A program made the position numbers and the translations under genes. This document shows, one piece after another, positions 3,463 through 40,802 of a stretch of DNA of 64,000 nucleotides. Location: assembly GCA_001782235.1 (NCBI GenBank), contig MFOC01000004.1, positions 32,945 to 96,944 on the forward strand. The letters are read 5' to 3'. Under the pieces are notes generated by a model. It made no database searches, was not told where the DNA came from, and saw only the letters and a list, made by a program, of their open reading frames with translations. How positions within the stretch are numbered: the stretch's first letter is position 1; each line of letters begins with the position of its first letter. The DNA is from Candidatus Levybacteria bacterium RIFCSPHIGHO2_02_FULL_40_18. Its GTDB lineage: Bacteria > Patescibacteriota > Microgenomatia > Levybacterales > GWA1-39-11.

Positions 3463-3590
3463 TAGAAAATAGTTCTTGGAAAATGGAAAATAGTAATGGA
3501 AAGTGGAAACTAGAAAATAGATAAATTAAAACTAATTTCCAATCTCTAATTTCCATACCATTTTCTAATTTCTAATAACCAATTTCTATT
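3463..3590 (+). repeat. MITE-like AT-rich hairpin repeat, copy A (rplJ-rplL spacer)
   Basis: The left arm ctagaaaatagttcttggaaaatggaaaatagtaatggaaagtgg pairs with the right arm ...ctaatttccataccattttctaatttctaataaccaatttctatt. It is homologous to copies at 20628, 34531, 35818 and 40661. Confidence 0.6.
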
Positions 3591-3610
3591 GAACGGGGGT
3601 GAATTAATTT

Positions 3611-4009
3611 ATGGCAAAAGCAACAAAAGATGATTTGTTAAAACAAATTGAAGAAATGTCAGTTCTGGAGGTATCCGAATTAGTCAAGGCGCTTGAGGAG
3701 AAATTCGGCGTGACTGCAGCCGCCCCCGTAGGGGCGAGCCCTGCACAGACTGGTGCTGGGGTAGCACCTGAGGCTGGAGAGCCGGCAGAAGAACAAACCG
3801 TATTTAATGTTTGGATTCAGGCAGCAGGAGATAACAAGCTTTCAGTCATTAAGACTCTCAGGGAATTAGTTCCAACTTTGGGCCTTAAAGAAGCAAAAGA
3901 TTTAGTTGACACCGCTCCAAAAGAGGTAATGACCGCCGTCAACAAGAAAACCGCTGATGAAGCCAAGGAAAAGTTAACAGCAGCAGGCGCAACAGTCGAA
4001 CTCAAATAG
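3611..4009 (+). CDS. rplL: 50S ribosomal protein L7/L12
   Basis: Conserved N-terminal dimerisation helix, an Ala/Pro/Glu-rich hinge and a C-terminal domain ([12 protein letters not shown] ... ATVELK). Confidence 0.92.
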
Positions 4010-4103
4010 TTTCCAGTTTCGAGTCTCCAATTTCCAATTAGTCAACGAGTTGATCAATTGGCAACTGGAAATTGAGCTGTAATCTCGCTATAATACCTAA
4101 ACT

Positions 4104-4394
4104 ATGGCTTTTAAATGTGATAATTGCGGAAGAGGAATTAGGTGGGGGCACCGCGTGTCTCATTCAAAGAGAAGAACTGGTCGTGCCTTCAGACCAAATA
4201 TTCAGAAGAAAACAATCATGATTGACGGCAGATTAATTCATGCCAAACTCTGCACAAACTGCCTCAAAACCCTCAGAAAAGTCAAGAAAGCTCGCTTCGC
4301 GTCGACGAACGACGGCGGGTCGAAGCGGGTGAAAGCTTCGAAAGAATCTCCCGTCCTTCAGGATAGCCGTTTACAAAATCCGACAGCTTCATAA
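4104..4394 (+). CDS. rpmB: 50S ribosomal protein L28 (with C-terminal extension)
   Basis: N-terminus CDNCGRGIRWGHRVSHSKRRTGRAFRPNIQKK matches the L28 family. The 3' ~110 nt overlap the convergent fmt gene. Confidence 0.75.
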   Translation: MAFKCDNCGRGIRWGHRVSHSKRRTGRAFRPNIQKKTIMIDGRLIHAKLCTNCLKTLRKVKKARFASTNDGGSKRVKASKESPVLQDSRLQNPTAS

Positions 4395-5160
4395 CGTTTT
4401 TCCCCTCAACCTGAATTTGGTCGTTTGGCAGCAATTTCGCTATCCGTTTGATGCCGTTTAGTTTTGCCTTGAACCAGACCGCGGGCCATGGATAATATGC
4501 CCGGATCATGCGGTCTAGCTGTTGGCTTTTGGCTGTTGGCTTTTGGCTAATGTCGATAAAACCAGATTCGCGAGTTAGCCTTTTGGTAAACGTCGCTTTC
4601 GAATGATCCTGCTCAATAGGTTTTAATTCTCCCGAAATATACCTCGGCAGAACTTCCGAAAGTAAATCGGCGCCTTTTTCAAACAGCCTTCGATACAAAG
4701 TTTCCGAAGTATCATTGGGTTCGATTTTTTCTTCGACCTTTGCCAACATCGGTCCATGGTCAACTTCTTCATCTAACTTTATGATCGAAACGCCGGTTTT
4801 TGATTCGCCAGCCAAAATTGCGGACTGAACAGGCGTCGGGCCTCGGTATTTAGGGAGAAAAGAAGGGTGGATATTAAGAATTCCAAATTCAAATAAGTTT
4901 AAAATTTCTTTCGGAACAATAAGCCCAAAGAACGCAAGAACCCCAATTTTTGCCCCAATTTTCTTTAGGTCGGTGATAATTCTCCGATCAAATTTGTTGA
5001 TCGAAAAACAGGGAGTGTTGCTCTTATTACAGTATAAAATTAAAGGGGAATTTGGGTCTTTTTCAGTGGTAAAAACTATTAAATCAAATCTGTAACGTAA
5101 AACCTCGACAATCCGTGAAAAGTACGGTCCTGCCCCAAAAAAAACAATTTTTTCTTTCAT
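4282..5160 (-). CDS. fmt: Methionyl-tRNA formyltransferase
   Basis: Formyltransferase N-domain (KIVFFGAGPYF ... NIHPSFLPKYRGPTPVQSAILAGESKTGVSIIKL) plus a C-terminal domain. Confidence 0.85.
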   Translation of the reverse strand: MKEKIVFFGAGPYFSRIVEVLRYRFDLIVFTTEKDPNSPLILYCNKSNTPCFSINKFDRRIITDLKKIGAKIGVLAFFGLIVPKEILNLFEFGILNIHPSFLPKYRGPTPVQSAILAGESKTGVSIIKLDEEVDHGPMLAKVEEKIEPNDTSETLYRRLFEKGADLLSEVLPRYISGELKPIEQDHSKATFTKRLTRESGFIDISQKPTAKSQQLDRMIRAYYPWPAVWFKAKLNGIKRIAKLLPNDQIQVEGKNVMKLSDFVNGYPEGREILSKLSPASTRRRSSTRSELS

Positions 5161-5260
5161 AATGATATTATACAGGAGAAATTAAACGCGGGCGGAGTTT
5201 TTCAGCAATACATCCTATAGGGTTTGAAATGATCCGGCGTTTGAGGTAGAATATTGTTGT

Positions 5261-6412
5261 ATGACAAGTCGAGTGGAAGGACAAAGACCAACCGTACGGG
5301 AAGGCCAAATTGTGGCCAAAGCAAAGGACATAAGGGGAGAGATGCGGACTGCCCCCGTTCTAATAATTGCCGAAAATCCCGCCATGCACGAGGCTGTTAA
5401 GCCACATCCGGAGCTGGTCGAGGGTGAGGGAAGACTGAAAGTGGGTCCTTTATACGGGACAGTTTGGGTAACGACGTACCACCAGCCAAGTGAACGCAGA
5501 CTTCAAACAATGACAGGTAAGGACATCATTGGTCGCATAGGGGAAGGAGAGCCCAAAACCGTTAGAGCGCTGAGATGGAACCATTGTCAGGATATAGAAA
5601 CGGCTTTTCGTTTTATGGGTCATGTTGGTGAAGTGTACGACAGAAGAGATGGAAAAGAAGTGCAAAAAACAAAAAGGGCAATTGGCGCGATGAAGCGCAT
5701 TATCCGTGATTTTCGAAGTGAAGAGACCATGACGCAGGAGAGACTTGATAGCTTGCGCGAAGCAACCGTTAGCGATCTTGCCCAAGCGGGCTTTTACAAT
5801 GCAAGAAAAGAGGTAAAGAAACAAATTGCATCTCAAGGTACACTTGCTTCAGGCCGTGACAGCGAAGGCAGGATTAATGACTTAGTTTCAAGATCTAGAG
5901 CGGCCTCAGCATGGCTGAAGGCAATACACGAGCTTATGTTTGCAGGGCAAGTCCGTGAGAAATTTCCATATCTTCGGGACCTGGTTTTGCTTGAACGTGC
6001 CAGAGAGCGTCTTGATCTTGAGTTTGCTGTAAGAATAATAGACAATGTTTTAAGGCTTGGTAACAACAACCGAGACATTTCCAGGACCTTGTCCTCAGTC
6101 GCACATTTTAGCAGAAGAAACCTTACATCAAACAGGCCGAAGGCAAACCCCTATAAAGGGCCTGCAGTTATTGCTCACGTTAGCCTTTTTGGTTCAAGGC
6201 ACGAGGGCACGGTGAGAATACTCGAAGCATATCTGGGAGAGGAGCGCGCACGACAAATGTTGTCAGTGCCATCAATTATTGCCGTTTACCGTGACACAAC
6301 AAGAAGTGCGATGGGCAGGTGGGAGGAAATAAGCGAGAGGTTGAGTGCGGCAAGAAGCGAACTGGCCCTGGCGCTTGAAGTGGGCGATGACGGCCTTGTG
6401 GAGGCTGCCTAA
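5261..6412 (+). CDS. Hypothetical Arg-rich protein encoded by a GC-rich (~53%) ORF
   Basis: 383-aa uninterrupted ORF with composition clearly different from its ~38% GC neighbours. I recognise no conserved motif. It sits between fmt and def on the opposite strand. Confidence 0.4.
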   Translation: MTSRVEGQRPTVREGQIVAKAKDIRGEMRTAPVLIIAENPAMHEAVKPHPELVEGEGRLKVGPLYGTVWVTTYHQPSERRLQTMTGKDIIGRIGEGEPKTVRALRWNHCQDIETAFRFMGHVGEVYDRRDGKEVQKTKRAIGAMKRIIRDFRSEETMTQERLDSLREATVSDLAQAGFYNARKEVKKQIASQGTLASGRDSEGRINDLVSRSRAASAWLKAIHELMFAGQVREKFPYLRDLVLLERARERLDLEFAVRIIDNVLRLGNNNRDISRTLSSVAHFSRRNLTSNRPKANPYKGPAVIAHVSLFGSRHEGTVRILEAYLGEERARQMLSVPSIIAVYRDTTRSAMGRWEEISERLSAARSELALALEVGDDGLVEAA

Positions 6413-6415
6413 ATC

Positions 6416-7030
6416 TTATACTTCGATCTCTTCAAATTCATCTTCTCCTGCGGCGTTTTTGTAGGAGCGGTAGAGTTGCTCTTTTTGTTCAAGAACATGT
6501 TTTGTAAAGAGGATTCCATTGAGGTGGTCAAGCTCATGCTGGATTATTGTTGAATCAAACCCACTAAAGTTTTGGATGTTTTCCTTACCCGCAACATCCT
6601 GATATCGTAACTTGATCTCCTTTTTTCTTGCAACATTTCCCCAAATATTTGGTACAGAAAGGCAGCCTTCAAGAAGCCTTTTTTTTGATTTTGCAGGCTT
6701 TTTAGCCTCAATTTTCTTGGAATTGGTAAATGACGGTACTTTTTTCTCGCCCGATGACGTGATAATTTCAGGATTTATGAAAGTAAGTATTTTGCCGTTC
6801 TCCTGCGGTCTTGCAATAAACATTCGTTTGAAGATCCCAACTTGTGGTGCGGCAAGGCCAACGCCAACTGGATCACGCGTTGCCGAAAGAGTTTTTTTCA
6901 TCTTAGAAATTTCTTTCGCAAGTTTTCTATCGAAGAGAGTCACCGGCGATGATTTTTCAAGAAGCTTTGAGTTTGGAGTAACCAAAATTTTAAACATGGG
7001 TAAATTATAACAGAATACAATTCGGTTCAA
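6416..7030 (-). CDS. def: Peptide deformylase (with Lys-rich insertion)
   Basis: All three Def motifs are present: GVGLAAPQVG, EGCLSVP and HELDHLNG. The start is probably the internal Met (MFKILV). A ~25-aa Lys-rich insert precedes the EGCLS motif. Confidence 0.85.
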   Translation of the reverse strand: MNRIVFCYNLPMFKILVTPNSKLLEKSSPVTLFDRKLAKEISKMKKTLSATRDPVGVGLAAPQVGIFKRMFIARPQENGKILTFINPEIITSSGEKKVPSFTNSKKIEAKKPAKSKKRLLEGCLSVPNIWGNVARKKEIKLRYQDVAGKENIQNFSGFDSTIIQHELDHLNGILFTKHVLEQKEQLYRSYKNAAGEDEFEEIEV

Positions 7031-7141
7031 TAATTTTCATGCAAATTTCATGCGAATCTAAATACTGTTAATGTATGCGAATAATTATTAGTATAAATTC
7101 GTACTAATTAAATTCGAATGTATTCGTATAAGAAGTAATAC

Positions 7142-9520: not shown

Positions 9521-9599
9521 AAATTTCGAACAAGGGCAAAAATGATCTACTTTGCACTATTGACAGGCAAACAAAAAGGGATGTTATACTAATTCCCCT

Positions 9600-9800
9600 A
9601 TGAAAAATAGACAAGCGCAGGATAGAAAATTTGAGAAAAAGATGAAATACTACGAATTAATTTTCGAACGCTGGGAAAACGAGAACAGATTGTGGCATGA
9701 ATATCCTGACGAAATGTCACAGTCAACATTGAGGTTGTCCGAAAAGATGCTTAAGTACGAGTTAATAAAATGCAAACACGAAAAACCAATCGATAAATAA
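9600..9800 (+). CDS. Small hypothetical protein
   Basis: 66-aa ORF preceded by a TGTTATACT extended -10-like element. Confidence 0.3.
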   Translation: MKNRQAQDRKFEKKMKYYELIFERWENENRLWHEYPDEMSQSTLRLSEKMLKYELIKCKHEKPIDK

Positions 9801-9815
9801 TGTTATACTTAGTAT

Positions 9816-10166
9816 ATGGTTAAATCAATAAAGAAAAATAATCAAGTCGCAACAAAAACCGATGTTCAGACATTAAAAGTAGATATCCAAAGACTGGAGA
9901 AAAGCACAAAAGCCGATATTCAGGAGTTAAAGAAAGACTTGAAAGAAGAAGTGTTGGATTTGCGCGAAGGGATAGTAGACCAGGTTAATGGCAAAATGAA
10001 GCTGTATAAAGATGAGGTATTAACAAAACTGGATGGGATTTCGAAAGAGCTTCAGGATCTGAGGGAGGAAAATGCTGCCAGCACTTTGCATTTTGAAAGA
10101 CTAGACGAAAAAGTCGACAATCATGAAAAAAGAATCGCCCGCCTTGAACCTACACAAACTTCCTGA
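9816..10166 (+). CDS. Hypothetical coiled-coil protein
   Basis: 116 aa with a heptad-like charged pattern. It is preceded by the same TGTTATACT motif. Confidence 0.35.
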   Translation: MVKSIKKNNQVATKTDVQTLKVDIQRLEKSTKADIQELKKDLKEEVLDLREGIVDQVNGKMKLYKDEVLTKLDGISKELQDLREENAASTLHFERLDEKVDNHEKRIARLEPTQTS

Positions 10167-10211
10167 TTTTTCCATTGATTTATTTTGAAGTTTCGGCTAT
10201 AGTTTTAAATT

Positions 10212-11351: not shown

Positions 11352-11388
11352 AATTGATTTCAATTTCTAAAAGAGCTACAATAGCTCC

Positions 11389-11811: not shown

Positions 11812-11872
11812 GATCGATTGCTTCGAAGTCAAAAGTCACGGGAGGGTTGAGATAATGTGATATAATCGATTC

Positions 11873-12055: not shown

Positions 12056-12086
12056 AATCGGCACTTACCCTGAAGAATTTGAAGGG

Positions 12087-12115: not shown

Positions 12116-12470
12116 ATAGAGACTGATTTGGAAGATCGCGGTACATTTGAGGATGACAGCTAATGACACGTTCATAATTACAATTTCCTTCAAATTTTAG
12201 GGACAAATTTTTTGCCCCGTAGCAATCTCCCGAAATCACTCATTTAAAGTTCGCTCTTTAAAAATTATTGTTCAGAAAACAAGACAATCGCAAAGATTGG
12301 ATTTCTTTGGAGTTTTGTTTTTGTTGGACAAACCATAAAGTTGTTCAGATAGTGGTAGGATCTTTTTCGAACATTTTTGTTCGAGAATTTTCTTTGACAG
12401 AGTACATTTTTTTGCCAGGTACCATTCGGTACCTGACTGCAAAAATTTTGACTCCGTCAAAATTTTTTTG

Positions 12471-14066
<1,596 letters not shown>

Positions 14067-14248: not shown

Positions 14249-14524
14249 TTATTGCTTTCCCCAGCTTTTTGTAATTTGTAATTTCAAGTCTTCTTTCGCT
14301 CTGTGGTTTAATTTTAACCGTTTCTCTCTTTTCGTGGCATCGAATTTATTTCTGTAGGCTTCATAGTAAATTAACAGCCAAGGTGCATATCGCTTGGTGT
14401 AATTACTTAATCCTTTATTATGTTGTTCGACTCGTTTTTTTAAATCGCGAGCAAATCCAATATATAAATCTCCGTTTTTTGAGCTTTTTAAAGCGTAAAC
14501 GTAATACATAATTTTATTATACAA
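14249..14524 (-). CDS. GIY-YIG nuclease family protein (UPF0213/YhbQ-like)
   Basis: YVYALKSSKNGDLYIGFARDLKKRVEQHN matches the GIY-YIG core. It is a ~90-aa single-domain protein. Confidence 0.75.
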   Translation of the reverse strand: MYNKIMYYVYALKSSKNGDLYIGFARDLKKRVEQHNKGLSNYTKRYAPWLLIYYEAYRNKFDATKREKRLKLNHRAKEDLKLQITKSWGKQ

Positions 14525-15560: not shown

Positions 15561-15589
15561 GCATCTATTATCTATTTTCTATTCCCTAT

Positions 15590-16127: not shown

Positions 16128-16373
16128 GTGATTAAATATTTTGTATATGTTTTGAGAAGCGAAGTAAATGGCCGACTCTATACTGGATCAGCCGTTGATC
16201 CGGACTTAAGACTTGAGCAACATAATACGGGTAAAAGTAAATATACAAAATCAACGCGACCATTTAAATTAGTCTACAAGGAGGAATATAATACTAGATC
16301 GGATGCGGTTCGAAGAGAAAGATTTCTGAAGACAGGAAAAGGAAGAGAGTTTTTAAAGAAAAAATTGGGGTGA
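16128..16373 (+). CDS. GIY-YIG nuclease family protein (UPF0213/YhbQ-like), paralog of 14249..14524
   Basis: YFVYVLRSEVNGRLYTGSAVDPDLRLEQHN. It has a GTG start, and its stop overlaps the first bases of tRNA-Ile. Confidence 0.7.
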   Translation: MIKYFVYVLRSEVNGRLYTGSAVDPDLRLEQHNTGKSKYTKSTRPFKLVYKEEYNTRSDAVRRERFLKTGKGREFLKKKLG

Positions 16374-20090: not shown

Positions 20091-20626
20091 TTCTTGGACC
20101 GCGAAAATTGCTAGAGCTGGTTCGTAAAAAAAAGTTGGTCGAGGGATTGTCAGAGCGCGAGCTAACGAATCCTGAAGGAGCGGGTTTTGATTTGAGGTTG
20201 GGGGAGGTTTATAAAATAAGCGGTTCGGCTTTTCTTGGTGAAACACACCGAAAGACCCCGAGCATAAAACTTGTTCAAAAATACAAAGAAGGCCAGAAGA
20301 GAACAATAAAAATAAAACCCGGAGATTTTTATCTTGCAACTACAATTGAATCGGTTAATACTCCAAAAAATTTGACAATAAATTTTAAACCTCGAACCAC
20401 AACTTTTCGTTCCGGTCTATTTCTTAGAACCGGAAATGTCGCTCCGGGATATCGCGGAAAATTGACATTCGCGATTAAAAATGAGGGACCAATAACCGTT
20501 GAGATTGAAATGGGCGCCCGTATTGTTCATGCGCAGTTTGAGGAGGTAAAAGGCGGCGGCTCGTCCTACCGCGGTCAATGGCAAGGCGGCCGCGTAACAA
20601 CAACCAATCGTGAAAAACAAATATAA
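20087..20626 (+). CDS. dCTP deaminase/dUTPase-family protein (second paralog)
   Basis: GAGFDLRLGEVYK ... IKPGDFYLATTIE is the dUTPase/Dcd beta-jelly-roll signature. It overlaps tmk by 4 nt. Confidence 0.65.
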   Translation: MILGPRKLLELVRKKKLVEGLSERELTNPEGAGFDLRLGEVYKISGSAFLGETHRKTPSIKLVQKYKEGQKRTIKIKPGDFYLATTIESVNTPKNLTINFKPRTTTFRSGLFLRTGNVAPGYRGKLTFAIKNEGPITVEIEMGARIVHAQFEEVKGGGSSYRGQWQGGRVTTTNREKQI

Positions 20627-20627: not shown

Positions 20628-20763
20628 CTAGAAAATAGTTATTGGAAAATGGAAATTAGTAATGGAAAATAGAGAATAGAAAATAGTTAATAATTAATAT
20701 ATTGCCAATTTATAATATCTAATTTCCATAACCATTATCCAATTACTAATAACCAATTTCTAT
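20628..20763 (+). repeat. MITE-like AT-rich hairpin repeat, copy B (ends at the thyA start codon)
   Basis: ctagaaaatagttattggaaaatggaaattagtaatggaaaatag ... taatttccataaccattatccaattactaataaccaatttctATG. Confidence 0.6.
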
Positions 20764-21718
20764 GAAAAAACATCAAGAATACCAATACCTAGATTTGCTT
20801 CGTGACATTATGAAAAATGGTGTTAAGAAGCCTGTTTTTAATAATCCGGGAGTAACTATTATAAGTGTGTTCGGGCGTCAGATGCGATTCGATTTGTCAA
20901 CCGACTTTCCACTTCTGACAACTAAGAAATTGTTTACGCGAGGAATTATTGAGGAACTTCTGTGGTTTATAAAAGGTGATTCTAACATTAAATATTTAGT
21001 TGACCGCAATGTTCATATTTGGGATGAGTGGGCATATAAACCGTATAAAAATCAAAAACTTAAAACTAAAAACTCAAAACTACTTTCGCAGGAAGAATTC
21101 ATAGAAAAAATAAAAACTCTACCAGCAAGTAATCCTTTTGTTAAAAAATGGGGAGATCTTGGGAATGTTTATGGAGTGCAGTGGAGGAGATGGAAAACTT
21201 CGGACGGAAGAACAATAGATCAGCTCTTATGGGCAATTGACAAACTTAAAAAAACACCAACTCGAAAACACATTATTGTTTCCGCATGGAATCCGGAGTT
21301 TATATATGAAATGGCCTCACCCGGCAAATCAATGGCCTTACCTCCTTGCCACACACTGTTTCAGTTGGATGTTCGTAATAAAAAACTATCCCTCCATTTA
21401 TACATGAGAAGCGCTGATTTTTTCCTAGGTGTCCCTTTTAATATCGCAAGCTATTCACTTCTGACCATGATGCTTGCTCAAGTAACGGGATTAAAAGTGG
21501 GTGAGTTTATTTTGACTTTTGGCGATGTTCATCTTTACAGCAACCACTTCAAACAAGTTCGTGAACAATTAAAAAGGAAGCCAAGACCTTTTCCAAGGAT
21601 GAAAATTAATCTCAAAATTAAAGATATTGATGATTTCAAAATCGAAGATTTCAAACTAGTCGGTTACAATCCCCATGATCCAATAAAGGCTCCCGTAACA
21701 GTAGTCGGAGGATTTTAG
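20762..21718 (+). CDS. thyA: Thymidylate synthase ThyA (with internal insertion)
   Basis: Active-site region MALPPCHTLFQLDV, plus DLLRDIMKNG and SAWNPE motifs. A ~50-aa insertion is comparable to the L. casei-type ThyA. Confidence 0.9.
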   Translation: MKKHQEYQYLDLLRDIMKNGVKKPVFNNPGVTIISVFGRQMRFDLSTDFPLLTTKKLFTRGIIEELLWFIKGDSNIKYLVDRNVHIWDEWAYKPYKNQKLKTKNSKLLSQEEFIEKIKTLPASNPFVKKWGDLGNVYGVQWRRWKTSDGRTIDQLLWAIDKLKKTPTRKHIIVSAWNPEFIYEMASPGKSMALPPCHTLFQLDVRNKKLSLHLYMRSADFFLGVPFNIASYSLLTMMLAQVTGLKVGEFILTFGDVHLYSNHFKQVREQLKRKPRPFPRMKINLKIKDIDDFKIEDFKLVGYNPHDPIKAPVTVVGGF

Positions 21719-28328: not shown

Positions 28329-28333
28329 AGTAT

Positions 28334-29090: not shown

Positions 29091-30206
29091 ATGATACTTA
29101 CTGTTGTTGCCTTTGTTGTAATACTCTCAATCCTTGTTCTTATCCACGAGCTTGGACATTTTCTATTCGCAAAGAGATTTGGAATTAGGGTTGAGGAGTT
29201 TGGTTTTGGATTTCCTCCTCGAGTTTTTGGCAAAAAGATCGGCGAAACGTTATATTCAATAAACCTTCTTCCGGTAGGTGGTTTCGTAAAGCTCTATGGC
29301 GAAGACCCAGCCGGCGGCGGCAATATCAGACAAACAGGCCACGAGCCACCTGCCACGAGCCAACAGCTAAAACGCGCCTTCTACGCACGTCCCGCTTGGC
29401 AGCGAGCAACAATAGTTTTGGCGGGCGTAATTATGAACTTTATCCTTGCTGTTGTCCTTATCTCTTATCTTTTCTCGGCTCACGGCGTTGCTGTCCCAAC
29501 AGAGAATATCAAGATAGTAGAAATCGTTAAGAACTCGCCGGCTGCGGCCGCCGATATTCAGAAAGGAGACGAGGTAATAACGATTGATGGAGAAAGGATT
29601 AATGAGACAGAGGATTTTGCAAAAATTGCGAAAGATGCAGCAGGGCAACCGATCTGGCTCGTACTTGAGAGGGATGGAAAAGAATTTAAAGTTACAGTTA
29701 CTCCTCGAACAAAAGTTCCCCAGGGCCAAGGTCCGATTGGTGTTGCCATTTCAAATATTGAAGTGAAGAAATATCCGTGGTATTCAGCGCCTTTTTTTGG
29801 AACGATCGAGGCATTTAAGTTTTCATTTATGATTTTGCAAGGGCTTTCCGAGATGGTTATTAATCTTGTAATTTATGGAAAGACTCCCGTTGGCGTTGCA
29901 GGACCTGTTGGCGTTGCGCAGTTGACAGGTCAAGCAGTATCATATGGTTTGGTTGCGACATTATGGTTTGTCTCGCTTCTTTCTTTAAACCTTGCCGTAG
30001 TTAATGTTTTGCCTATTCCGGCGCTTGATGGTGGCCGTCTGTTTTTCATTATGATAGAGCTTACAACCGGCAAAAAAATATCTGCCCGCTATGAGGCAAT
30101 GGCCCATGCAATCGGTCTTGCAATGTTGCTCGCACTGATATTATTTATCACGTTTTTCGACATTGTGCGCGTTCTGTCAGGACAATCCATTATTCCCCGT
30201 ATGTAG
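29091..30206 (+). CDS. rseP: Site-2 protease RseP (M50 zinc metalloprotease with PDZ domain)
   Basis: HELGHF zinc motif in TM1, a central PDZ segment (IVEIVKNSPAAAADIQKGDEVITIDGERI) and the C-terminal LNLAVVNVLPIPALDGG motif. Confidence 0.85.
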   Translation: MILTVVAFVVILSILVLIHELGHFLFAKRFGIRVEEFGFGFPPRVFGKKIGETLYSINLLPVGGFVKLYGEDPAGGGNIRQTGHEPPATSQQLKRAFYARPAWQRATIVLAGVIMNFILAVVLISYLFSAHGVAVPTENIKIVEIVKNSPAAAADIQKGDEVITIDGERINETEDFAKIAKDAAGQPIWLVLERDGKEFKVTVTPRTKVPQGQGPIGVAISNIEVKKYPWYSAPFFGTIEAFKFSFMILQGLSEMVINLVIYGKTPVGVAGPVGVAQLTGQAVSYGLVATLWFVSLLSLNLAVVNVLPIPALDGGRLFFIMIELTTGKKISARYEAMAHAIGLAMLLALILFITFFDIVRVLSGQSIIPRM

Positions 30207-30219
30207 TATAATTTACTTT

Positions 30220-31646: not shown

Positions 31647-31688
31647 GTTGACTTAAAATCCTCAAATTGATATAAATACAAAATTATT

Positions 31689-33549: not shown

Positions 33550-33561
33550 ACTCGATGTCAT

Positions 33562-34485
33562 TTATTTGATCTCGAAATAATTGAAGACGTTGCGGGCGAG
33601 TTGGGCTATGCGTTCGGCGGCACCCTGAGGCGAATTTGATTCGGATAGAACTACAAATAGTATTGGATCTTTTCCAAAAATAATTCCCGCGTCATGTTTA
33701 AATCCGCCTATTTCTCCGGTTTTATGAGCAACTTCAACTTCAGCCGGTAAATATTTAGGAATCCTGTCATTTAACTTTTGCTGGACTAATAGATCGAGCA
33801 TTTTTTTGGAATATTCGCTGTCAATCATTATTCCCTGATATAACTTTTCAAAAAAGAGAGCAATGTCTTCCGCTGTAGTTTTTGGCGGCTGGCCAAGTCG
33901 TGAATTCCTAAATCCTTGATCGCTCATAAAACTTGAAACATTCGAATTTCTGATCTCTGAGACTAAGAGAAGAGCGGCGTAATTATGGGAGATAGTAATC
34001 ATTTGATAGATTGCATCACTAACTTTCATTGTGACCATTCCTTCTGTGAGCTCCGCCGAATCTGTCCCAATTTTAAACAGCTCATCTAATTCTTTTACAT
34101 CACGGCTTAAGGTTTTATCTTGCGGGAGTCTTCCTTCCTTAATAAATTTATAAGAAGTTCCCAAAACCCAAAGTTTATAAAGACTTGCGGGTTCATATAT
34201 CCTTTTTTCGTTTTGGGAAAAGGATTCGCCTGTCCGAAGATTTTTGATTACAATTGCATAAGCACCTCGCGTTCCCGAAAGGGAAGATGTAATCACATCC
34301 GCAAGAGACTTGCCCGCAATGCTTTCTAATAAAGTCTTTGTTTCGGAGAGACCTTGGGCCAAGGGGGAAATAATCTCTTGAAATTTTTGCTGTCGAGAAA
34401 AAGGGGATGGGAAAAAGTGAGACAGAACAAAAGAGAAAATTATTCCACCAATTATTATAAAAAGAAAATCGCGACCGCGCAGCAT
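33562..34485 (-). CDS. Serine hydrolase of the class A beta-lactamase / PBP-like family
   Basis: SLYKL (SxxK), SHN (SDN-like) and HKTGEIGG (KTG) motifs appear in the expected order. It has an N-terminal signal/TM segment. Confidence 0.6.
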   Translation of the reverse strand: MLRGRDFLFIIIGGIIFSFVLSHFFPSPFSRQQKFQEIISPLAQGLSETKTLLESIAGKSLADVITSSLSGTRGAYAIVIKNLRTGESFSQNEKRIYEPASLYKLWVLGTSYKFIKEGRLPQDKTLSRDVKELDELFKIGTDSAELTEGMVTMKVSDAIYQMITISHNYAALLLVSEIRNSNVSSFMSDQGFRNSRLGQPPKTTAEDIALFFEKLYQGIMIDSEYSKKMLDLLVQQKLNDRIPKYLPAEVEVAHKTGEIGGFKHDAGIIFGKDPILFVVLSESNSPQGAAERIAQLARNVFNYFEIK

Positions 34486-34530
34486 TACATCGAATTATAC
34501 CATCCCCTTCGGTTAAAATTCTAAGCACGA

Positions 34531-34672
34531 AATCCTAAATTCTAAACAATATTAACTAATAGACAATGGTTGTTAGAAAATAGAAAATGGTAATGGAAAA
34601 TAGAGAATGGAAAATGGAATAGTATTGTTTCCAATTACCAATTTCTATTACTGGTATTTGTTTAGGATTTCG
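34531..34672 (+). repeat. MITE-like AT-rich hairpin repeat, copy C (with terminal inverted repeats AAATCCTAAA...TTTAGGATTT)
   Basis: aatcctaaattctaaacaatattaactaatagacaatggttgttagaaaatagaaaatggtaatggaaaatagagaatggaaaatggaatagtattgtttccaattaccaatttctattactggtatttgtttaggattt. Its exact reverse complement is at 40661..40802. Confidence 0.65.
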
Positions 34673-34690
34673 ATATTCGAATTTCGGATT

Positions 34691-35809
34691 TTAGAGTCTG
34701 GCGGGGTTTATTCGTAGGATTTTGTCGTTGCCTTGGCGCACGGTTCCCCTGCCGTCGCGGTTGCTTGTTGTCACATAGAGCATACCGTCTGGTCCCAAAA
34801 CTACTTCCCGCAGCCTTCCATACTCGTTTTTAAAATGTTCGACCAATTTTTGTTCGCTTATTTTATATTCATAAAGCGCAGATCCCCTAAGCCCTGCAAA
34901 GAATATCGAGCCATTAAAATATGCCGTTCCGGCCGGTGCCCAAGTATCGCCTGATCCAGAATTAATAATTGGTGTTATTAAGCCTGATCGCGTTTCGACT
35001 CCCTGAATTTCAGGCCATCCGTAGTTTTTTCCAGCCTGGATCAGGTTAAGTTCGTCGAGTCCGCCCGGTGATCTTCCATGTTCTGTTGACCACAATTGAC
35101 CATTGTCATCCCAAGTAATTCCTTGAGGATTACGGTGTCCGTATGAGTAAATTATAGTATCAAATGGGTTACTTGGTCCTCTATTTCCATCTCTTGTAAC
35201 ACGCAGGATTTTTCCCGCAAAAGAATTCCTATCCTGCGCTAGAGATGGTTGCTGAGCATCTCCTGTAGTTATATATAGAAGCCCATCAGGGCCGAATTTT
35301 ATCCGGCCCCCATCGTGATTTGGCGCTCCCGGAATTTGGCCGACGATTATTTTTTCTTCCAAAAGTTTCTCTCCCTCAAACTTATATCGAACAACACGGT
35401 TTAGAGTGTTGCTGCCCGAGGATCGGTAGGTATAATAGAGGTAGATATTTTTATTAGTTTCAAAATTGGGATCAACGGCCACCCCGTGAAGTCCGCTTTC
35501 TGAGACTTGATGAACGGGAATTGTTGCGATTGGGTCGGATACGTTCCCGTTTGTATCAACCAGGCGAACACGTCCCGGCCGTTCGGTGACAAGCATTCGG
35601 CCATCAGGAAGAAAAGCCATTGCCCACGGCACTTCAAGATTCTCCGAAAGGATAGAAACAGTTTGGGCTTCACGCTCCGAAGGAGTGATAGTATCCGAAG
35701 GCTGCAAAATTCGGGACTCGGGGGGCCTGATTAGAACGATTGCTACCAGAAGCAAAACAAAGATACCAAGCCCGACTATTATTTTTGTCATAGTTTTGAT
35801 ATTATACAT
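34691..35809 (-). CDS. Soluble PQQ-dependent sugar (glucose/sorbosone) dehydrogenase-family beta-propeller protein
   Basis: LEVPWAMAFLPDGRMLVTERPGRVRLV ... HDGGRIKFGPDGLLYITTGD ... EHGRSPGGLDELN are typical sGDH/Ylil-family blades. It has an N-terminal TM anchor. Confidence 0.8.
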   Translation of the reverse strand: MYNIKTMTKIIVGLGIFVLLLVAIVLIRPPESRILQPSDTITPSEREAQTVSILSENLEVPWAMAFLPDGRMLVTERPGRVRLVDTNGNVSDPIATIPVHQVSESGLHGVAVDPNFETNKNIYLYYTYRSSGSNTLNRVVRYKFEGEKLLEEKIIVGQIPGAPNHDGGRIKFGPDGLLYITTGDAQQPSLAQDRNSFAGKILRVTRDGNRGPSNPFDTIIYSYGHRNPQGITWDDNGQLWSTEHGRSPGGLDELNLIQAGKNYGWPEIQGVETRSGLITPIINSGSGDTWAPAGTAYFNGSIFFAGLRGSALYEYKISEQKLVEHFKNEYGRLREVVLGPDGMLYVTTSNRDGRGTVRQGNDKILRINPARL

Positions 35810-35817
35810 TAGAAAAT

Positions 35818-35940
35818 AGTTATTGGAAAATGGAAATTAGTAATGGAATGTGGAAAATAGAAAATGGATATTAAAATACTAATTTCTAATATCTAATTTC
35901 CGAACCATTTTCTAATTTCGAATAACTAATTTCTTATTTC
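35818..35940 (+). repeat. MITE-like AT-rich hairpin repeat, copy D (immediately upstream of the cupredoxin RBS)
   Basis: ttagaaaatagttattggaaaatggaaattagtaatggaatgtggaaaatagaaaatgg ... ctaatttccgaaccattttctaatttcgaataactaatttc. Confidence 0.6.
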
Positions 35941-35956
35941 AAGGGGGTGAGAAATA

Positions 35957-36397
35957 TTGAATAGAAATTTAATAATAATTGCGGTTGTTGTGATAGCTAT
36001 AATAGCGGGTGCGGTTTTGTTTTTAGGAGGACAGAGCTTAGGTCCTTCAGTATCTCCAACACCAACTGGGACTGTTCAAGAACAGCTGTCTCCAACCGAC
36101 GCAGTGATGAAAGAAGAAGGGCAGGCTACGGATGAAGCAATGATGGAAAAGGAAGTGTCTATCGATATCGCCAATTTTGCTTTTTTACCTAAAACCATGA
36201 CACTTAAAAAAGGGGCAACTGTTACCTGGATCAATCAGGATACGGTCGCACATACTGCAACAGCTGACGATGCAAGTTTTGACACGGGACTTTTAGCAAA
36301 GGGAGAATCCGGATCAGTAACCTTTGACAAGCCCGGAACTTACTCTTATCATTGCACGCCGCATCCAAACATGAAGGCAACAATAGTAGTTGAGTAG
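35957..36397 (+). CDS. Membrane-anchored cupredoxin (plastocyanin/pseudoazurin-like blue copper protein)
   Basis: Type-1 Cu ligands in the canonical spacing: H (VAHTAT) ... C-x2-H-x4-M (YHCTPHPNMKATIVV). It has an N-terminal TM helix. Confidence 0.8.
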   Translation: MNRNLIIIAVVVIAIIAGAVLFLGGQSLGPSVSPTPTGTVQEQLSPTDAVMKEEGQATDEAMMEKEVSIDIANFAFLPKTMTLKKGATVTWINQDTVAHTATADDASFDTGLLAKGESGSVTFDKPGTYSYHCTPHPNMKATIVVE

Positions 36398-36405
36398 CTC
36401 AGCTG

Positions 36406-37758
36406 TTATTCTTCAGGAAGGTCGTATTCATAATGGTCATCTTGATCAACAAAACGGGAGGATTTCTGTTCATGAGAGAGCAGGGGATTTACATAAAATC
36501 CCTTTAAATCGCGCCTCCCTATGATTATAGGAAATTGAAGGTGGGAGCGGTCGGCAACTGATGCAATTGTTGATATTTTTTTTCCGCCAAGGTTAAACTC
36601 AAGTTTTATCGCGGGTCTTACCCCTCCGCCGGATGCTGAAGATACATGAATATTATCAGGAAGAAGGTGAAATCCAAATTCTTCAACAATCGATTTGTCG
36701 ATAGAGCTCCTGTATGCCCCGGTGTCAATTTTTGCCTTGTATTCACCGGATTTGCCGTTAAAAAAAATTGTTACAGGTTCTATTACAGATAGAATTTTTC
36801 TTTCCTCCTTAACTTTATGGGAAAATTTCTCCGCAAAAATAGACCTTGCTATTTCAACGCCTCGTTCGGCATTGGGGACATTTAATGCCTCGACCCGCTC
36901 GAGTCTTTCACGAAGAGACGCAAGATTTGCATTTTGTATCGAGAGGCCGGGCCTTGCATTAATCTCAAGAACAATCGGACCCCTTTTTTTTTCCACAACT
37001 ATATCTACGCCCGCAAATCCGAGTCCCGATACAATTTGAGCGCGCGTGGCCAATAGCATAATTTCTTCCCAATTAGGTATTTTAATTCCGGAAGTTTTAA
37101 TCTTAGTACCAGGGATAAACTTAAGATATTTGTTTCTTAGGATTGCATATTTAGTGATACCGGTTCGCAGTCCTATTCCAACACCTATTGCCCCTTGGTG
37201 TAAATTAGCCCTTCCATGAGATTCTTCAGTGGGAATTCTCAGCATAGCCATTATTGGAATTTTGTTAAAAACAATTATTCTAATATCAGGCAGTCCCATT
37301 GATCCAAACTTTTTAAAAAACCGATGAGGGACAATTCGTCCTTCAATGTACGCCTTATCTGGAATCGATTGGAGAGAGTAAATCCCATCAAAAATATCAA
37401 GGATATGAGATTTAATTTGTTTTAATGTATAAGCCCTACTGCTAATTGTTGTCCCGGAAAGCCCATCCCAATTCTTAAAGACCAATATCCCTTCCCCCCC
37501 ATAGCCTCTTGCCGGTTTTATGGCAAAACCTTCTTTTGGTAAGTCCCAGGAGTAGTTTTTAAGCCCCTTTCTTGTCGCAAAAGCCTGAATGATCGTGGCC
37601 GTGGGGATATTGTTCTTGATAAATAGCTTCTTTGTCGTGAGTTTATCATCCGCTGCAAATTTTGCCCTTCCCTTGTTGTAGCGATTCAAATAGAGAAAAT
37701 TACGGGCATTCATGCCCAATACTTGATTACTGACTGACATAGCGTCGAAGCTCGGCAA
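36406..37758 (-). CDS. RimK-like ATP-grasp ligase fused to a C-terminal retropepsin-like (DUF785-type) domain
   Basis: N-terminal ~330 aa have an ATP-grasp layout (Gly-rich loop ARGYGGEGI, the EINARPG-like VLEINARPGLS). The C-terminal ~110 aa carry a D-T/S-G aspartyl-protease motif (KIDTGAYRSSI) as in RimK-associated DUF785. Confidence 0.65.
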   Translation of the reverse strand: MPSFDAMSVSNQVLGMNARNFLYLNRYNKGRAKFAADDKLTTKKLFIKNNIPTATIIQAFATRKGLKNYSWDLPKEGFAIKPARGYGGEGILVFKNWDGLSGTTISSRAYTLKQIKSHILDIFDGIYSLQSIPDKAYIEGRIVPHRFFKKFGSMGLPDIRIIVFNKIPIMAMLRIPTEESHGRANLHQGAIGVGIGLRTGITKYAILRNKYLKFIPGTKIKTSGIKIPNWEEIMLLATRAQIVSGLGFAGVDIVVEKKRGPIVLEINARPGLSIQNANLASLRERLERVEALNVPNAERGVEIARSIFAEKFSHKVKEERKILSVIEPVTIFFNGKSGEYKAKIDTGAYRSSIDKSIVEEFGFHLLPDNIHVSSASGGGVRPAIKLEFNLGGKKISTIASVADRSHLQFPIIIGRRDLKGFYVNPLLSHEQKSSRFVDQDDHYEYDLPEE

Positions 37759-38644
37759 ATCTCTTATATTCCGTAAGTCTCAAGCCAAAGTAGCGTCCTA
37801 AAACTATATTCAGCGGCAGCAGGACAAGAATTATTTCAGGATAAAGCAATATATAGCCTCTTATAAATTCAATAGATAAAATCGCATACCCAATACTTCC
37901 CAAAAGAAGCGTAAAAAAAGTTACAACTATTGCCGGCTTTGTGCCTCTTGAGAGCTGGAGGCCCACGATTTTATCACTTAGAAGAATAAGAAGCAGCACC
38001 GGAAAGAAGGAAAGCTGGGTAATAGAGATAAGACCAAATGAAGCGCTTGTTACCAGACTGACAAACACGAAGACTGAAACTATAAGCATAGATATAGCCA
38101 TTTTTGGAAGCTGCATTATCCTGATTCGTTTAAGAATATATCTTGCAATGATCGAGGCTAAAAGTATGGTTGATAGAAGTATAGCACCGGCCTCCGGGCC
38201 TGTTGCTACCAGGGTAATTGCCAAAGCTATAGGGACGAGCATTTCAAGAGTTGGAAATCCAAGAATATTTCTCACAAATACAACCATGGTAGCAAGAAAA
38301 GGTAGAAGGAGAATTAATATAATTGTATTGGCAGGGATGCCGTTTCTCACCGCATATTGAACAAAAAAGCCCATAAAGTCGGTTAGCCCCGGGTCATTAA
38401 TTTGTCTTTTTGAGAAAAGAGCCAAGAATTCTTTCTTTGCCTTCTCCTCCTCAGGCTTTGTCAAATCTTCTTCCTTTCTTTTTTCAAGTTCCTTTTGTTG
38501 TTCTGCAGATGGGGTGGCAAGTTCTCCTGATTCGGTCGAAATTAAAGGCGTAGGCAAAACATTTATGGGTATTTGAGCAAACGACTGCCCGCTAAAGACT
38601 ACAGAGAAAGTTGCCAAGAATAATGCAAAAATCTTCCGCTTCAC
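37727..38644 (-). CDS. Polytopic membrane protein (7-8 TM) co-encoded with the ATP-grasp/protease gene
   Basis: Signal peptide, an extracytoplasmic charged segment, then ~7 hydrophobic helices. Its 3' end overlaps the ATP-grasp start. Confidence 0.5.
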   Translation of the reverse strand: MKRKIFALFLATFSVVFSGQSFAQIPINVLPTPLISTESGELATPSAEQQKELEKRKEEDLTKPEEEKAKKEFLALFSKRQINDPGLTDFMGFFVQYAVRNGIPANTIILILLLPFLATMVVFVRNILGFPTLEMLVPIALAITLVATGPEAGAILLSTILLASIIARYILKRIRIMQLPKMAISMLIVSVFVFVSLVTSASFGLISITQLSFFPVLLLILLSDKIVGLQLSRGTKPAIVVTFFTLLLGSIGYAILSIEFIRGYILLYPEIILVLLPLNIVLGRYFGLRLTEYKRFAELRRYVSQ

Positions 38645-38689
38645 GTGCTTATATTATCAAAAATCGATAAAATAAGCTATATAGTCCGC

Positions 38690-38945
38690 ATAGCACTCCG
38701 CGACGCCATCCAAGACCTCTGATGGTAGTCGCTGCGCGGCAGAAAATTATCTTCGTTTCAAACCGGGAGAGGGCCTCGATTGTCGCTGGTTGTAGCCCAT
38801 TGCGCTTAATCTTCTGCGAATTTCATTTGGATTGCTTCTTGGATGATTGCCCCAGTATGCTTCCAAACCTCGCAGTCCACTCGCAATATATACAGTCGTA
38901 TCTCTTCCTCTAGGTTCGCCTTCGGCCTGAACCATAATGGTCCTG
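38690..38945 (-). ncRNA. GC-rich (~50%) structured non-coding region: candidate small RNA or riboswitch-like leader of the 7TM/ATP-grasp operon
   Basis: No credible ORF on either strand. GC content is well above surroundings. There are multiple long-range inverted repeats (GCGACTACCATC/GATGGCGTCGC; ggttcaggccgaaggcgaacc). A consensus promoter lies immediately upstream on the minus strand. Confidence 0.35.
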
Positions 38946-38950
38946 TCTAA

Positions 38951-38980
38951 TATATAATTATATTCACACTTTTCACGGCC
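38951..38980 (-). promoter_or_regulatory. Sigma-70-type promoter (minus strand) TTGACA-18 bp-TATAAT
   Basis: Reverse complement reads cttgacaggccgtgaaaagtgtgaatataat. Confidence 0.45.
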
Positions 38981-39000
38981 TGTCAAGCACGAGTTGACTA

Positions 39001-40167
39001 CTAAATAAGTTTCTTCTGTTTAAGTTCTGTATAGTAGATTTTCTTCAGCGCAAGCAGGGCTCCAACCCCCGAAAGCGTAATTAAAATGTCTGTTATGAAA
39101 TTAACAATAGGGATAATGGTTAATATAAGGTAGACCACGATGCCGACAATATAGGCCCAAGCTTTTGCATTTTTATTCCCAGCCTTTGCGAGGACAAAGC
39201 GCCCAAGCGTATAGATCGCAAAAATTCGTCCAAACCAGAACATAAGAAGAAAAACTATGAAGAGAGTAATTGCTGCGGGGATTCCAAAAAGGGTTATGAA
39301 TAGAATTATTCCTAAAATTGGGGTCACTATTAAGGCCATAAAGCCTATTAGAAGAGCCAACCCGAATTTTGTTCTTATGTAGTCTGATGCACGAGTAGTA
39401 TAGTTTGGGAAAAAGAACATTAATGCCAATCCTACAATGATTAACCACAGAATATCGACAAGTTTTACCATGAGCGCAAATCCCGCAATAGCGGTAGCAA
39501 TTCCTTTGTCAAAATCTTTACCTTTGGTGGCCGCGCGAGGAGGTGTTTCATGCTTAATTTTACCCGAAACAGACGCGCCCTCTTGGATATTTACTTCGTT
39601 CTCGCTCCAATAAGTGAGATTTCCGTCAACATTGGCCTCAGGAGATAAAGAAAGCTCGCCGACTCCTGCCAGGATATCCCCGCCAACAGAATTTCCGATC
39701 AAAACACTTCCTCCGCCAATTGTTACTCCCCGTCCTATTGGAGCAAAAATCTGTACGCTTCCGCCGCCGGCGACAAGGCTCCCCTGAATAACGGTTAATC
39801 TATCAATCGTGATATTTCCACCGCCAACAGTAACATTTCCGCCAATATCAGCGCCGTTTAAAATAACGTTACCGCCGGCGGCTCTAATATCTCCCTGAAT
39901 ATTGCCTGAGACCGTTACGTTTCCGCCACCAGTCAGAAGGTCACCATTTATTTTCCCTTCAACTATAATTGTTCCACCGGCAACATACGCATCGCCATTA
40001 ACAGTTCCCAATATCTTTACAGTATCTCCTGCTGCAAAATAGTCGTGGTCCACCATTTCTGTTGCAGGCAGAAGCACATTCTTATTTTTCTCAACGGCGA
40101 AAACTGGGATTGCAACTATTAGAGTTAAGACGAAAAGAACAAGAATCGAACTAATTATTCTCTTCAT
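39001..40167 (-). CDS. Membrane protein with bactofilin-like Gly-rich beta-helical repeats and C-terminal TM helices
   Basis: Signal peptide, then ~10 repeats of the G-D/N-x-x-V/I-x-G-G type (GDAYVAGGTIIVEGKINGDLLTGGGNVTVSGNIQGDIRAAGGNVILNG ...), then 4 hydrophobic helices. Confidence 0.5.
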   Translation of the reverse strand: MKRIISSILVLFVLTLIVAIPVFAVEKNKNVLLPATEMVDHDYFAAGDTVKILGTVNGDAYVAGGTIIVEGKINGDLLTGGGNVTVSGNIQGDIRAAGGNVILNGADIGGNVTVGGGNITIDRLTVIQGSLVAGGGSVQIFAPIGRGVTIGGGSVLIGNSVGGDILAGVGELSLSPEANVDGNLTYWSENEVNIQEGASVSGKIKHETPPRAATKGKDFDKGIATAIAGFALMVKLVDILWLIIVGLALMFFFPNYTTRASDYIRTKFGLALLIGFMALIVTPILGIILFITLFGIPAAITLFIVFLLMFWFGRIFAIYTLGRFVLAKAGNKNAKAWAYIVGIVVYLILTIIPIVNFITDILITLSGVGALLALKKIYYTELKQKKLI

Positions 40168-40283
40168 AGTTCGAATATATCACCAGTGAACTGTTGTTTC
40201 AAGAGGTTAAATTCTCTATTGACCCCGCCCTTCGCGAAGGGCGGGGTTGACAAATAGTTTTCATTCGAATACTATTTAACCAA

Positions 40284-40610
40284 ATGGTTAAGAGTTCCAT
40301 GTTTCTTAGTGAGGTTTTTCATTCTCTGTCTGATCCAACAAGAAGGAAAATTCTTGAAGGATTAAGTAAGCGTCCTCTGACCGTTTCTGAGATTAAGGCT
40401 CCTTTTAGAATATCGCTTGTTGCCATTTCAAAACATTTAAAAGTTTTGGAGCGTGCAAAACTTATTCGCCGCCAGAAAATGGGGAGAGAGCATATGATTC
40501 GTCTTCATCCCCAGCCGCTTCGCGATGCTCATCGCTATATAGAAAGTTTTAAAAAAGACTGGAGCCGCCAACTAGACGCCCTTGAGAAATTCCTCGAACG
40601 CAATACTTAA
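40284..40610 (+). CDS. ArsR/SmtB-family transcriptional regulator
   Basis: LSDPTRRKILEGL ... LTVSEIKAPFRISLVAISKHLKVLERAKLI is a winged HTH of the ArsR type. Confidence 0.8.
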   Translation: MVKSSMFLSEVFHSLSDPTRRKILEGLSKRPLTVSEIKAPFRISLVAISKHLKVLERAKLIRRQKMGREHMIRLHPQPLRDAHRYIESFKKDWSRQLDALEKFLERNT

Positions 40611-40637
40611 AACACGAAAAACAAAATCCTAAACCCT

Positions 40638-40656
40638 AATATCCCTCCGGGCCGGA
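40638..40656. repeat. GC-rich palindromic short repeat (CCTCCGGGCCGGAGG) adjacent to MITE copy E
   Basis: ccctccgggccggagg shares the GGCCCGGAGGG / CCCTCCGGGCC core with repeats at 345-395, 45262-45335 and 47353-47398. Confidence 0.5.
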
Positions 40657-40660
40657 GGCT

Positions 40661-40802
40661 AAATCCTAAACAAATACCAGTAATAGAAATTGGTAATTGG
40701 AAACAATACTATTCCATTTTCCATTCTCTATTTTCCATTACCATTTTCTATTTTCTAACAACCATTGTCTATTAGTTAATATTGTTTAGAATTTAGGATT
40801 TC
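40661..40802 (-). repeat. MITE-like AT-rich hairpin repeat, copy E (exact inverted copy of copy C)
   Basis: The reverse complement of 40661..40802 matches 34531..34672 base for base in my comparison. Confidence 0.65.

Follow-up and report, generated by a model that had tools for sequence, protein, structure and literature searches.

The closest described systems to the repeats considered here are the intervening sequences (IVSs) of bacterial rRNA genes that contain an open reading frame (ORF), known from Leptospira, from helix 45 of the Coxiella burnetii 23S rRNA and from Azospirillum lipoferum. We compare with them five small hairpin repeats, labelled A, B, C, D and E, which lie in a 64,000-nt stretch of contig MFOC01000004.1 of Candidatus Levybacteria bacterium RIFCSPHIGHO2_02_FULL_40_18 (called the window below, always meaning that whole stretch). 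The L7/L12 protein encoded in the window is 100% identical to the one recorded for this bacterium. In Coxiella, the helix-45 IVS carries an ORF of the Pfam family PF05635, with two or three GACAGAT heptads and a degenerate GACAGAA upstream of it; the number of GACAGAT repeats varies among strains, and the site of RNase III cleavage is the first repeat (PMC4990558). In parallel, PF05635 ORFs and many short ORF-less insertions of less than 200 bp have been reported in the 16S and 23S rRNA genes of the candidate phyla radiation (CPR) (PMC11270868). On plasmid AZO_p2 of A. lipoferum we found an unannotated PF05635 ORF inside a 23S rRNA gene, at the helix-45 site, enclosed by arms of five heptads (GACAGAG, GACGGAT, GACAGAG, GACGGAG and GACAGAA) and their complement. 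Heptad-repeat arms are common to the PF05635-type IVSs examined, and the window family is of the same design. We consider it probable that A to E belong, as members without an ORF, to a family of selfish elements of the IVS type that are small and palindromic.

All five copies are intergenic, between protein-coding genes, and have a GC content of 21–27%. Copy A (3463–3590, 128 bp) is an ORF-less hairpin with heptad arms that fills the spacer between rplJ and rplL, copy B (20629–20764, 136 bp) is an ORF-less hairpin in the dcd–thyA spacer, and copy D (35810–35937, 128 bp) is an ORF-less hairpin in the spacer between the divergent GSDH (minus strand) and cupredoxin (plus strand) genes, none of these three being assigned a strand. 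Copy C (34516–34670, plus strand) is a composite unit of 155 bp in the spacer that separates the GSDH gene from a gene of the beta-lactamase family, and copy E (40661–40815, minus strand) is C inverted, also 155 bp, in the spacer between an ArsR-type gene and a DUF763 gene. The original prediction of a five-copy repeat family at these places is thereby borne out, and its locations were right, with the correction that D begins at 35810 and not at 35818. A degenerate 26-nt core, TTRGAAAATRGAAANTRGTAATGGAA, matches the window five times with no mismatch, once in each copy, and has no sixth match there with up to three mismatches allowed, while its chance expectation from 100 dinucleotide-preserving shuffles is 0. 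A profile of 40 family members, searched with nhmmer, likewise finds exactly the five copies in the window, with E-values from 1e-16 to 1e-30.

The arms of these repeats are ordered arrays of 8–9 heptads of the unit TRGAAAW, with a period of 7 in all five copies; the number of heptads differs between copies, and every one of them keeps two units that depart from this pattern, TRGTTRT and TRGTAA, the latter of only 6 nt. The element ends are conserved as GAAAWTRGYT...ARCYAWTTTC. Copies A, B and D can be aligned end to end and fold as RNA into long imperfect foldback hairpins (−27 to −41 kcal/mol); on both strands these folds are more stable than those of shuffled sequence, at z-scores of −3.4 to −5.5, as expected from the earlier claim that the arms are reverse complements able to form a hairpin. 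C and E, which are 99% identical and lie 5990 bp apart in opposite orientation, have the entire left arm in common with A, B and D, keep only about three heptads of the inner right arm, and carry an outer pair, AAATCCTAAA...TTTAGGATTT. The terminal inverted repeats previously described for C and E are therefore present in the form of this outer pair, although neither copy is a hairpin in its own right; both represent a single composite unit, a truncated heptad hairpin inside a second heptad motif of the GGATTTMG type. The same composite occurs in three unrelated contigs (L005, L013 and L041), and this second motif family (TTCGGAT/TTAGGAT) flanks the TRGAAAW hairpins there and at 34516–34545 and 34655–34700 of the window, a recurrent flanking that suggests nested or composite heptad elements.

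Outside the window, the exact core was found at 73 loci, 55 of them in metagenomes and 18 in species-representative genome contigs, the latter being named as Levyibacteriota, Curtissbacteria, Buchananbacteria, Uhrbacteria, several 'Patescibacteria', a 'TA06' metagenome-assembled genome (MAG) and low-GC 'Gammaproteobacteria' MAGs. The irregular units TRGTTRT and TRGTAA are conserved across phyla, which argues for common descent rather than convergence. When each left arm is matched to its best complementary partner, the size distribution is bimodal, with ORF-less hairpins of 107–146 bp (about 49 loci) and a long class of 516–543 bp (six loci: L012, L022, L072, L023, L026 and L033), besides a few loci of 175–210 bp in which one arm is duplicated or a little extra sequence is inserted. 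The copies of 118–150 bp, taken with the three of the window, amount to 40 distinct sequences. Arms of 43–66 nt pair in about 50 copies, and the approximately 50 ORF-less copies, including those of the window, are intergenic, with an orientation relative to the flanking genes close to 50:50.

In the long class, arms identical to those of the ORF-less hairpins enclose an ORF of about 130 aa that scores 52–60 bits on PF05635 (23S_rRNA_IVP, Avd-like; cutoff 33.8). The closest PDB match of this ORF is 2GSC, the pentameric four-helix-bundle protein XCC0516, and the sequence at its start, ATGGAAAAT, belongs to the heptads. One such cargo ORF, used as the query of a protein search, returned 608 clusters, the best-scoring of them 67–99% identical to the query, and the few with source names come from CPR and TA06. 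A reciprocal test, in which four genes of the cargo subfamily of intervening-sequence proteins (IVPs) were fetched by protein and chosen only for their long contigs (L086, L087, L090 and L091), found TRGAAAW arms flanking all four and an ORF-less copy within 1.5 kb of two. Other PF05635 genes are flanked by other repeats: a second IVP gene in L086 has arms of GCGTCTA heptads, the Azospirillum gene has GACRGAK heptads, and an IVP gene of the window itself has AATACTACA 9-mers. In the sample seen here, which comprises four subfamilies, each PF05635 subfamily has its own arm repeat. The window element in question (42025–42472, plus strand) consists of an ORF at 42070–42423, directly after the DUF763 gene, which matches PF05635 with an E-value of 6e-14 and 52.6 bits (cutoff 33.8), between inverted 9-mer arrays (AATACTACA x4.4 / TATTGGTAC...); its layout is that of the long relatives of the five-copy family, but its arm family and protein subfamily are others.

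As to the setting of these IVP genes, L087, which shares its Rifle sample of origin with the window and was compared with it as a possible part of the same genome, has a tetranucleotide similarity of 0.915 to it. In the Microgenomates contig L086 (1–2952) a pair of IVP genes from separate subfamilies, together with an ORF-less hairpin, is interleaved with a run of T4SS_pilin-domain genes, and the IVP elements of L087 and L091 adjoin pilin or TraC/TraG-like genes. PF05635-type genes inserted between cas genes have been described elsewhere, with no remark on repeats (PMC3936711).

The copies behave as insertions. The rplJ–rplL spacer was compared in four relatives (L075 to L078), whose L12 is 85–89% identical to that of the window. 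In L077 and L078 the spacer is a single nucleotide (TAA-T-ATG), with the Shine-Dalgarno sequence inside rplJ; in L076 it measures 57 nt and in L075 90 nt, each with its own hairpin, unrelated to the family and different from the other, upstream of the same Shine-Dalgarno sequence; and in the window it measures 150 nt and contains copy A. There is thus presence and absence at an orthologous site, between species rather than strains, and no family copy was found in the 6–20 kb of syntenic sequence available from each of the four relatives. The C/E unit is joined to three left flanks, on the GSDH side, on the ArsR side and on the cysS side in L081, at 99–100% identity, which, unless L081 is a chimera, indicates at least three near-identical copies and hence recent multiplication or homogenisation; several metagenome contigs, L083 and L084 among them, end inside this unit. 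In the 'TA06' contigs the element has 24–28% GC within flanks of about 50% GC, and the tetranucleotide correlation of these contigs with the window is only 0.27–0.32; these differences speak for a horizontal spread. An insertion that L024, L053 and L047 have in common, although their genomes have diverged, shows that copies can also persist vertically.

Two observations on the C–E segment are added here. In the Rifle contig L081 (8740–9010) the beta-lactamase side of C is joined through the 155-bp unit to a cysS-S18-SSB-S6 region that is not in the window. GC skew dips between C and E, but skew follows the coding strand elsewhere too. The possibility that the 6 kb separating C from E had been inverted was considered and rejected, given that the alternative junction in L081 joins the cysS region and does not represent the inverted arrangement, besides being possibly an assembly chimera.

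The copies sit very close to the signals of the neighbouring genes. Copy A is followed by the Shine-Dalgarno sequence GGGGGTGA and the rplL ATG (3611), and copy B is preceded by the dcd stop at 20626 and reaches into the thyA start codon, the A of that ATG (20762) being the final base of the element, with no Shine-Dalgarno sequence there. The left end of D contributes a −35-like TTTCCA, 17 nt upstream of an outward TATAAT-N9-ATG (35791), the likelier GSDH start there being 18 nt further in than the longest-ORF call. Next to C, on the minus strand, comes the TATAAT-N8-ATG of the beta-lactamase-family gene, and next to E comes TGTATAAT-N9-ATG (40843). In many copies of the family, predicted start codons lie within 10 nt of an element end, a number exaggerated by longest-ORF calling, as the case of D shows. 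A TATAAT 8–9 nt upstream of the ATG, with no Shine-Dalgarno sequence, is seen at the beta-lactamase-family, GSDH and DUF763 genes (34485–34497, 35791–35806 and 40826–40845), and this spacing suggests leaderless or near-leaderless mRNAs for the three, while rplL and the cupredoxin gene have the strong Shine-Dalgarno sequence GGGGGTGA.

Family membership, architecture, distribution and the presence or absence at an orthologous site are shown by the data above. A full-length element has about 520–540 bp and consists of a left arm of 8–9 heptads, a PF05635 gene of about 130 aa and, on the right, an arm complementary to the first; in A, B and D only a short loop separates the arms, C and E are a rearranged, recently multiplied derivative, and the family has spread into intergenic spacers of many CPR and some non-CPR genomes. 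The mechanism of transposition, the RNA processing and any role of the IVP we infer as follows. From the anatomy of the copies, the insert would fold back on itself, and the flanking stop codon and Shine-Dalgarno sequence would thereby stay next to the start codon in the mRNA, so that a self-folding insert would be tolerated in operons and compact spacers in the same manner as an IVS at the tip of an rRNA helix; in L024 a copy lies between the Shine-Dalgarno sequence and the ATG. Given that A and B lie inside operons, they must be co-transcribed with them, and the imperfect stem of about 55 bp would probably be cut by RNase III when this occurs, by analogy with Coxiella and other rRNA IVSs (PMC4990558). 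Such cleavage would leave a near-leaderless downstream cistron, which would suit the leaderless-type spacing between promoter and start at the three neighbouring genes mentioned above. Multiplication probably needs a trans-acting factor that recognises the heptad arrays, and the cognate IVP is the obvious candidate; we speculate that copying requires the IVP pentamer, which would recognise the heptad array, the one line of evidence being the co-variation of arm and protein.

We suggest keeping in mind that several results weigh against this interpretation. Target-site duplications, which the original prediction proposed to define, were not detectable, and no precise empty site was available since the 3' end of rplJ has diverged; TA is present at both flanks in only about one third of the copies and also belongs to the heptad consensus. 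The junction in L081 either reflects a real rearrangement, with a third copy in the genome, or is an assembly chimera across the 155-bp repeat. None of the at least ten ORF-bearing copies encodes a recombinase or a nuclease, the window holds no cognate IVP gene, and PF05635 is not known to have an enzymatic activity. No rRNA sequence is present in any of the 73 external loci and no family copy lies in an rRNA gene, and searches of viral contigs with the DNA core and with the cargo protein gave no match, so that no vector was found. Covariation in the stem is weak, with R:Y positions occupied by GC, GU or AU and a few AC pairs, and with double changes in 3 of 20 pairs. Lastly, among 25 copies between co-directional genes, the sense fold is the more stable in 13 and the antisense fold in 12 (p = 0.91). 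Selection at the RNA level is thus not supported; the behaviour of the palindrome is that of an inverted repeat in DNA, able to fold either way, and not of an RNA tuned to one strand. Arrays for RNA-binding proteins of the HutP/TRAP or CsrA kind (NAG-N4 or GGA repeats), prompted by the UAG/UGG-N4 periodicity, were discarded for the random orientation and the lack of a sense-strand fold advantage.

Compared with the known systems, the full-length relatives share with the ORF-containing rRNA IVSs the cargo family PF05635, the same layout of inverted arm, ORF and inverted arm, and the heptads of the arms, and likewise an ORF start beside or inside the heptads, a sporadic, horizontal-looking distribution and the lack of an encoded recombinase. 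The family differs in that the window copies have no ORF, in that these copies and their 73 relatives lie outside rRNA genes, in that the arms are longer (8–9 heptads) and of other sequence, and in that there are multiple copies per genome. Pairing arms made of tandem heptads are found in the window family, whereas a PF05635 ORF between the arms is missing from A to E and present only in the full-length relatives, and no copy sits at the tip of an rRNA helix; the window family is not an IVS in the strict sense. The short ORF-less rRNA IVSs of Salmonella and other Enterobacteriaceae (about 90–150 nt, in helices 25 and 45) are similar as AT-rich, ORF-less hairpins of about 100–150 nt, and according to the literature they are tolerated as helix extensions and cleaved by RNase III. 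The window copies lie instead in mRNA spacers and not in rRNA, and the likeness is one of form.

The Correia/NEMIS elements of Neisseria and the ERIC elements of enterobacteria resemble the family as imperfect palindromes of about 100–155 bp that occupy, in both orientations, intergenic spacers that are transcribed; they are co-transcribed and form hairpins. Those of Correia elements are cleaved by RNase III, and the elements can give rise to promoters directed outward; both Correia/NEMIS and ERIC have short terminal repeats and TA duplications and are not known to be associated with a PF05635 gene. In contrast, the present family has arms made of heptad arrays, shows no duplication and has an IVP gene in its full-length relatives. 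The cyanobacterial STRR sequences are tandem heptamers, found both between genes and inside a structural RNA helix (P12 of the RNase P RNA), but their heptad sequences differ from those described here, and they are not known to be linked to PF05635 genes or to a layout of inverted arms. The accessory protein Avd of diversity-generating retroelements (DGRs) belongs to the same four-helix-bundle superfamily as the cargo ORF of the full-length relatives (PMC10053308), and, unlike in a DGR, no reverse transcriptase, template repeat or variable repeat lies beside the elements. A plasmid search with the cargo protein matched only the Azospirillum 23S IVS. In the literature that we searched, whose coverage is incomplete, there was no report of PF05635 genes that lie outside rRNA and have subfamily-specific heptad arms, none of derivatives of these that lack the ORF, and none of miniature inverted-repeat transposable elements (MITEs) in Patescibacteria.

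Among the other explanations, the one that survives best, although we hold it unlikely, is that the repeats are cis-regulatory or architectural DNA of the host, such as protein-bound heptad operators, parts of promoters, or processing or terminator hairpins, made in situ by slippage and selection. Ribbon-helix-helix repressors bind heptad arrays, and the copies abut promoters and start codons (TTTCCA-17-TATAAT at D and TATAAT-N8/9-ATG at C and E); moreover, many other intergenic spacers of the window and its relatives hold different heptad arrays, and the number of heptads varies between copies as it also does between Coxiella strains. These features are outweighed by flanking genes that are functionally unrelated (rplL, thyA, cupredoxin, DUF763, beta-lactamase-family and others), by the random orientation, by a site that is empty in close relatives, and by irregular units conserved across phyla in arms that also enclose a gene. 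A terminator scan found no U-tract terminators, and a promoter scan gave promoter-like matches not clearly above shuffles, except for a 10/12 match at the left end of D.

The original prediction had seen in the five copies a miniature non-autonomous family, MITE-like in kind. In its classical sense this would mean a deletion derivative of an insertion sequence with a DDE transposase (for example IS630/Tc1-like and TA-targeting), mobilised in trans by a transposase elsewhere, and it is an explanation to which we give a small probability. Its descriptive part stands, in that the copies are palindromic, non-coding, shorter than 300 bp (120–140 bp), intergenic, multi-copy and insertion-like, with conserved terminal inverted repeats, with site polymorphism in that the orthologous site is empty in relatives, and with TA at both ends in about one third of the copies. 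What does not stand is the transposase-encoding partner: every longer relative with the same arms has a PF05635 gene and never a transposase, the TA belongs to the heptad consensus and no longer duplication accompanies it, and the arm is a heptad array of about 60 bp, not a short terminal repeat. The earlier statement that no transposase is visible in the window agrees with the precomputed Pfam matches, which show no transposase, integrase, reverse transcriptase, RNase III (rnc) or Nop-domain gene among the called genes of the window. A better label is that of an ORF-less IVS-type palindromic element, MITE-like in form only.

It is very improbable that the repeats represent a guide-RNA-type array, whether TIGR-Tas or CRISPR-like, or some other structured non-coding RNA gene. 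Short periodic repeats, stable hairpins and a CPR host would fit such an array, but there are no variable spacers, no 36-nt unit, no strand preference relative to transcription, and neither a Nop-domain nor a Cas gene in the window, and Rfam at gathering and permissive thresholds gave only chance matches to miRNA hairpins (17–21 bits against cutoffs of 73–135). TIGR-Tas in particular was rejected because it needs alternating edge and loop repeats, dual variable spacers and 36-nt units beside a Nop-domain Tas gene, and here there are no spacers, no 36-nt period and no Nop-domain gene. A chance likeness of low-complexity AT-rich intergenic DNA, which the low GC content and simple heptads of the copies could bring to mind, has a negligible probability and is already refuted by the shuffles, the profile E-values and the identical core in 73 external loci.

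Other repeats of the window and its relatives deserve mention beside the IVS-type elements. The 16S rRNA gene (12464–14045) is extended at the tip of helix 6 by an AT-rich insertion of 111 nt (12544–12654), composed of inverted repeats of an 8-mer type (TTAACCAA / GTCAATTT) and absent from the 16S of the close relative L078, which looks like an ORF-less IVS or an expansion segment. The rplL–rpmB spacer (4008–4094 in the window) has a different inverted heptad array in every one of the relatives L075 to L078, with TTTCCAG/TTTCCAA in the window and GCATCTA/GCCGCTA in L076 and L078, and with a TATAAT in or just after the hairpin (TGGAAA-17-TATAAT at 4066–4094). It seems that the spacers of Levybacteria generally contain heptad hairpins, of many different sequence types. 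Heptad arrays are also present in coding regions, at 4510–4548 in fmt (minus strand, GCTGTTG/GCTTTTG x4.4) and at 29338–29375 in a peptidase M50 gene (plus strand, GCCACGA x3.6), the two being 79% complementary to each other. The fmt ORF of the window has 292 aa compared with 277–284 aa in relatives, and this excess of 8–15 aa may reflect an in-frame repeat insertion. Downstream of the 16S gene, which is unlinked in that no 23S gene follows it within the window, two small GIY-YIG-domain ORFs (14249–14524, minus strand, 86 aa, and 16128–16373, plus strand, 81 aa) lie on either side of tRNA-Cys, with tRNA-Ile after the second.

In summary, the origin and spread of bacterial rRNA IVSs, and the role of the abundant PF05635 genes outside DGRs, have been questions since the early 1990s, and what these data add is that the same kind of element is present between ordinary genes, in ORF-bearing and ORF-less forms with identical arms, that it crosses phylum-level boundaries, and that each protein subfamily has its own repeat arms. 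It is possible, and we put it forward tentatively, that PF05635 genes with subfamily-specific repeat arms of heptads or 9-mers form a widespread and hitherto unrecognised class of small bacterial mobile elements of which the rRNA IVSs would be the rRNA subset, and that the Avd-like pentamer would recognise the array as DNA or RNA and drive the copying or maintenance of both ORF-bearing and ORF-less forms, possibly via an RNA intermediate, like Avd with its reverse transcriptase. The idea of the selfish IVS is in this way turned into testable protein–repeat pairs, in terms of heptad binding and of the mobilisation of ORF-less copies. Such repeats also break metagenome assemblies of CPR bacteria, as in the contig ends of L083 and L084, and there is a risk of taking them for regulatory arrays or for arrays of a CRISPR-like kind. 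Since they abut start codons and promoters of compact genomes, they may shape the expression of operons in these bacteria.

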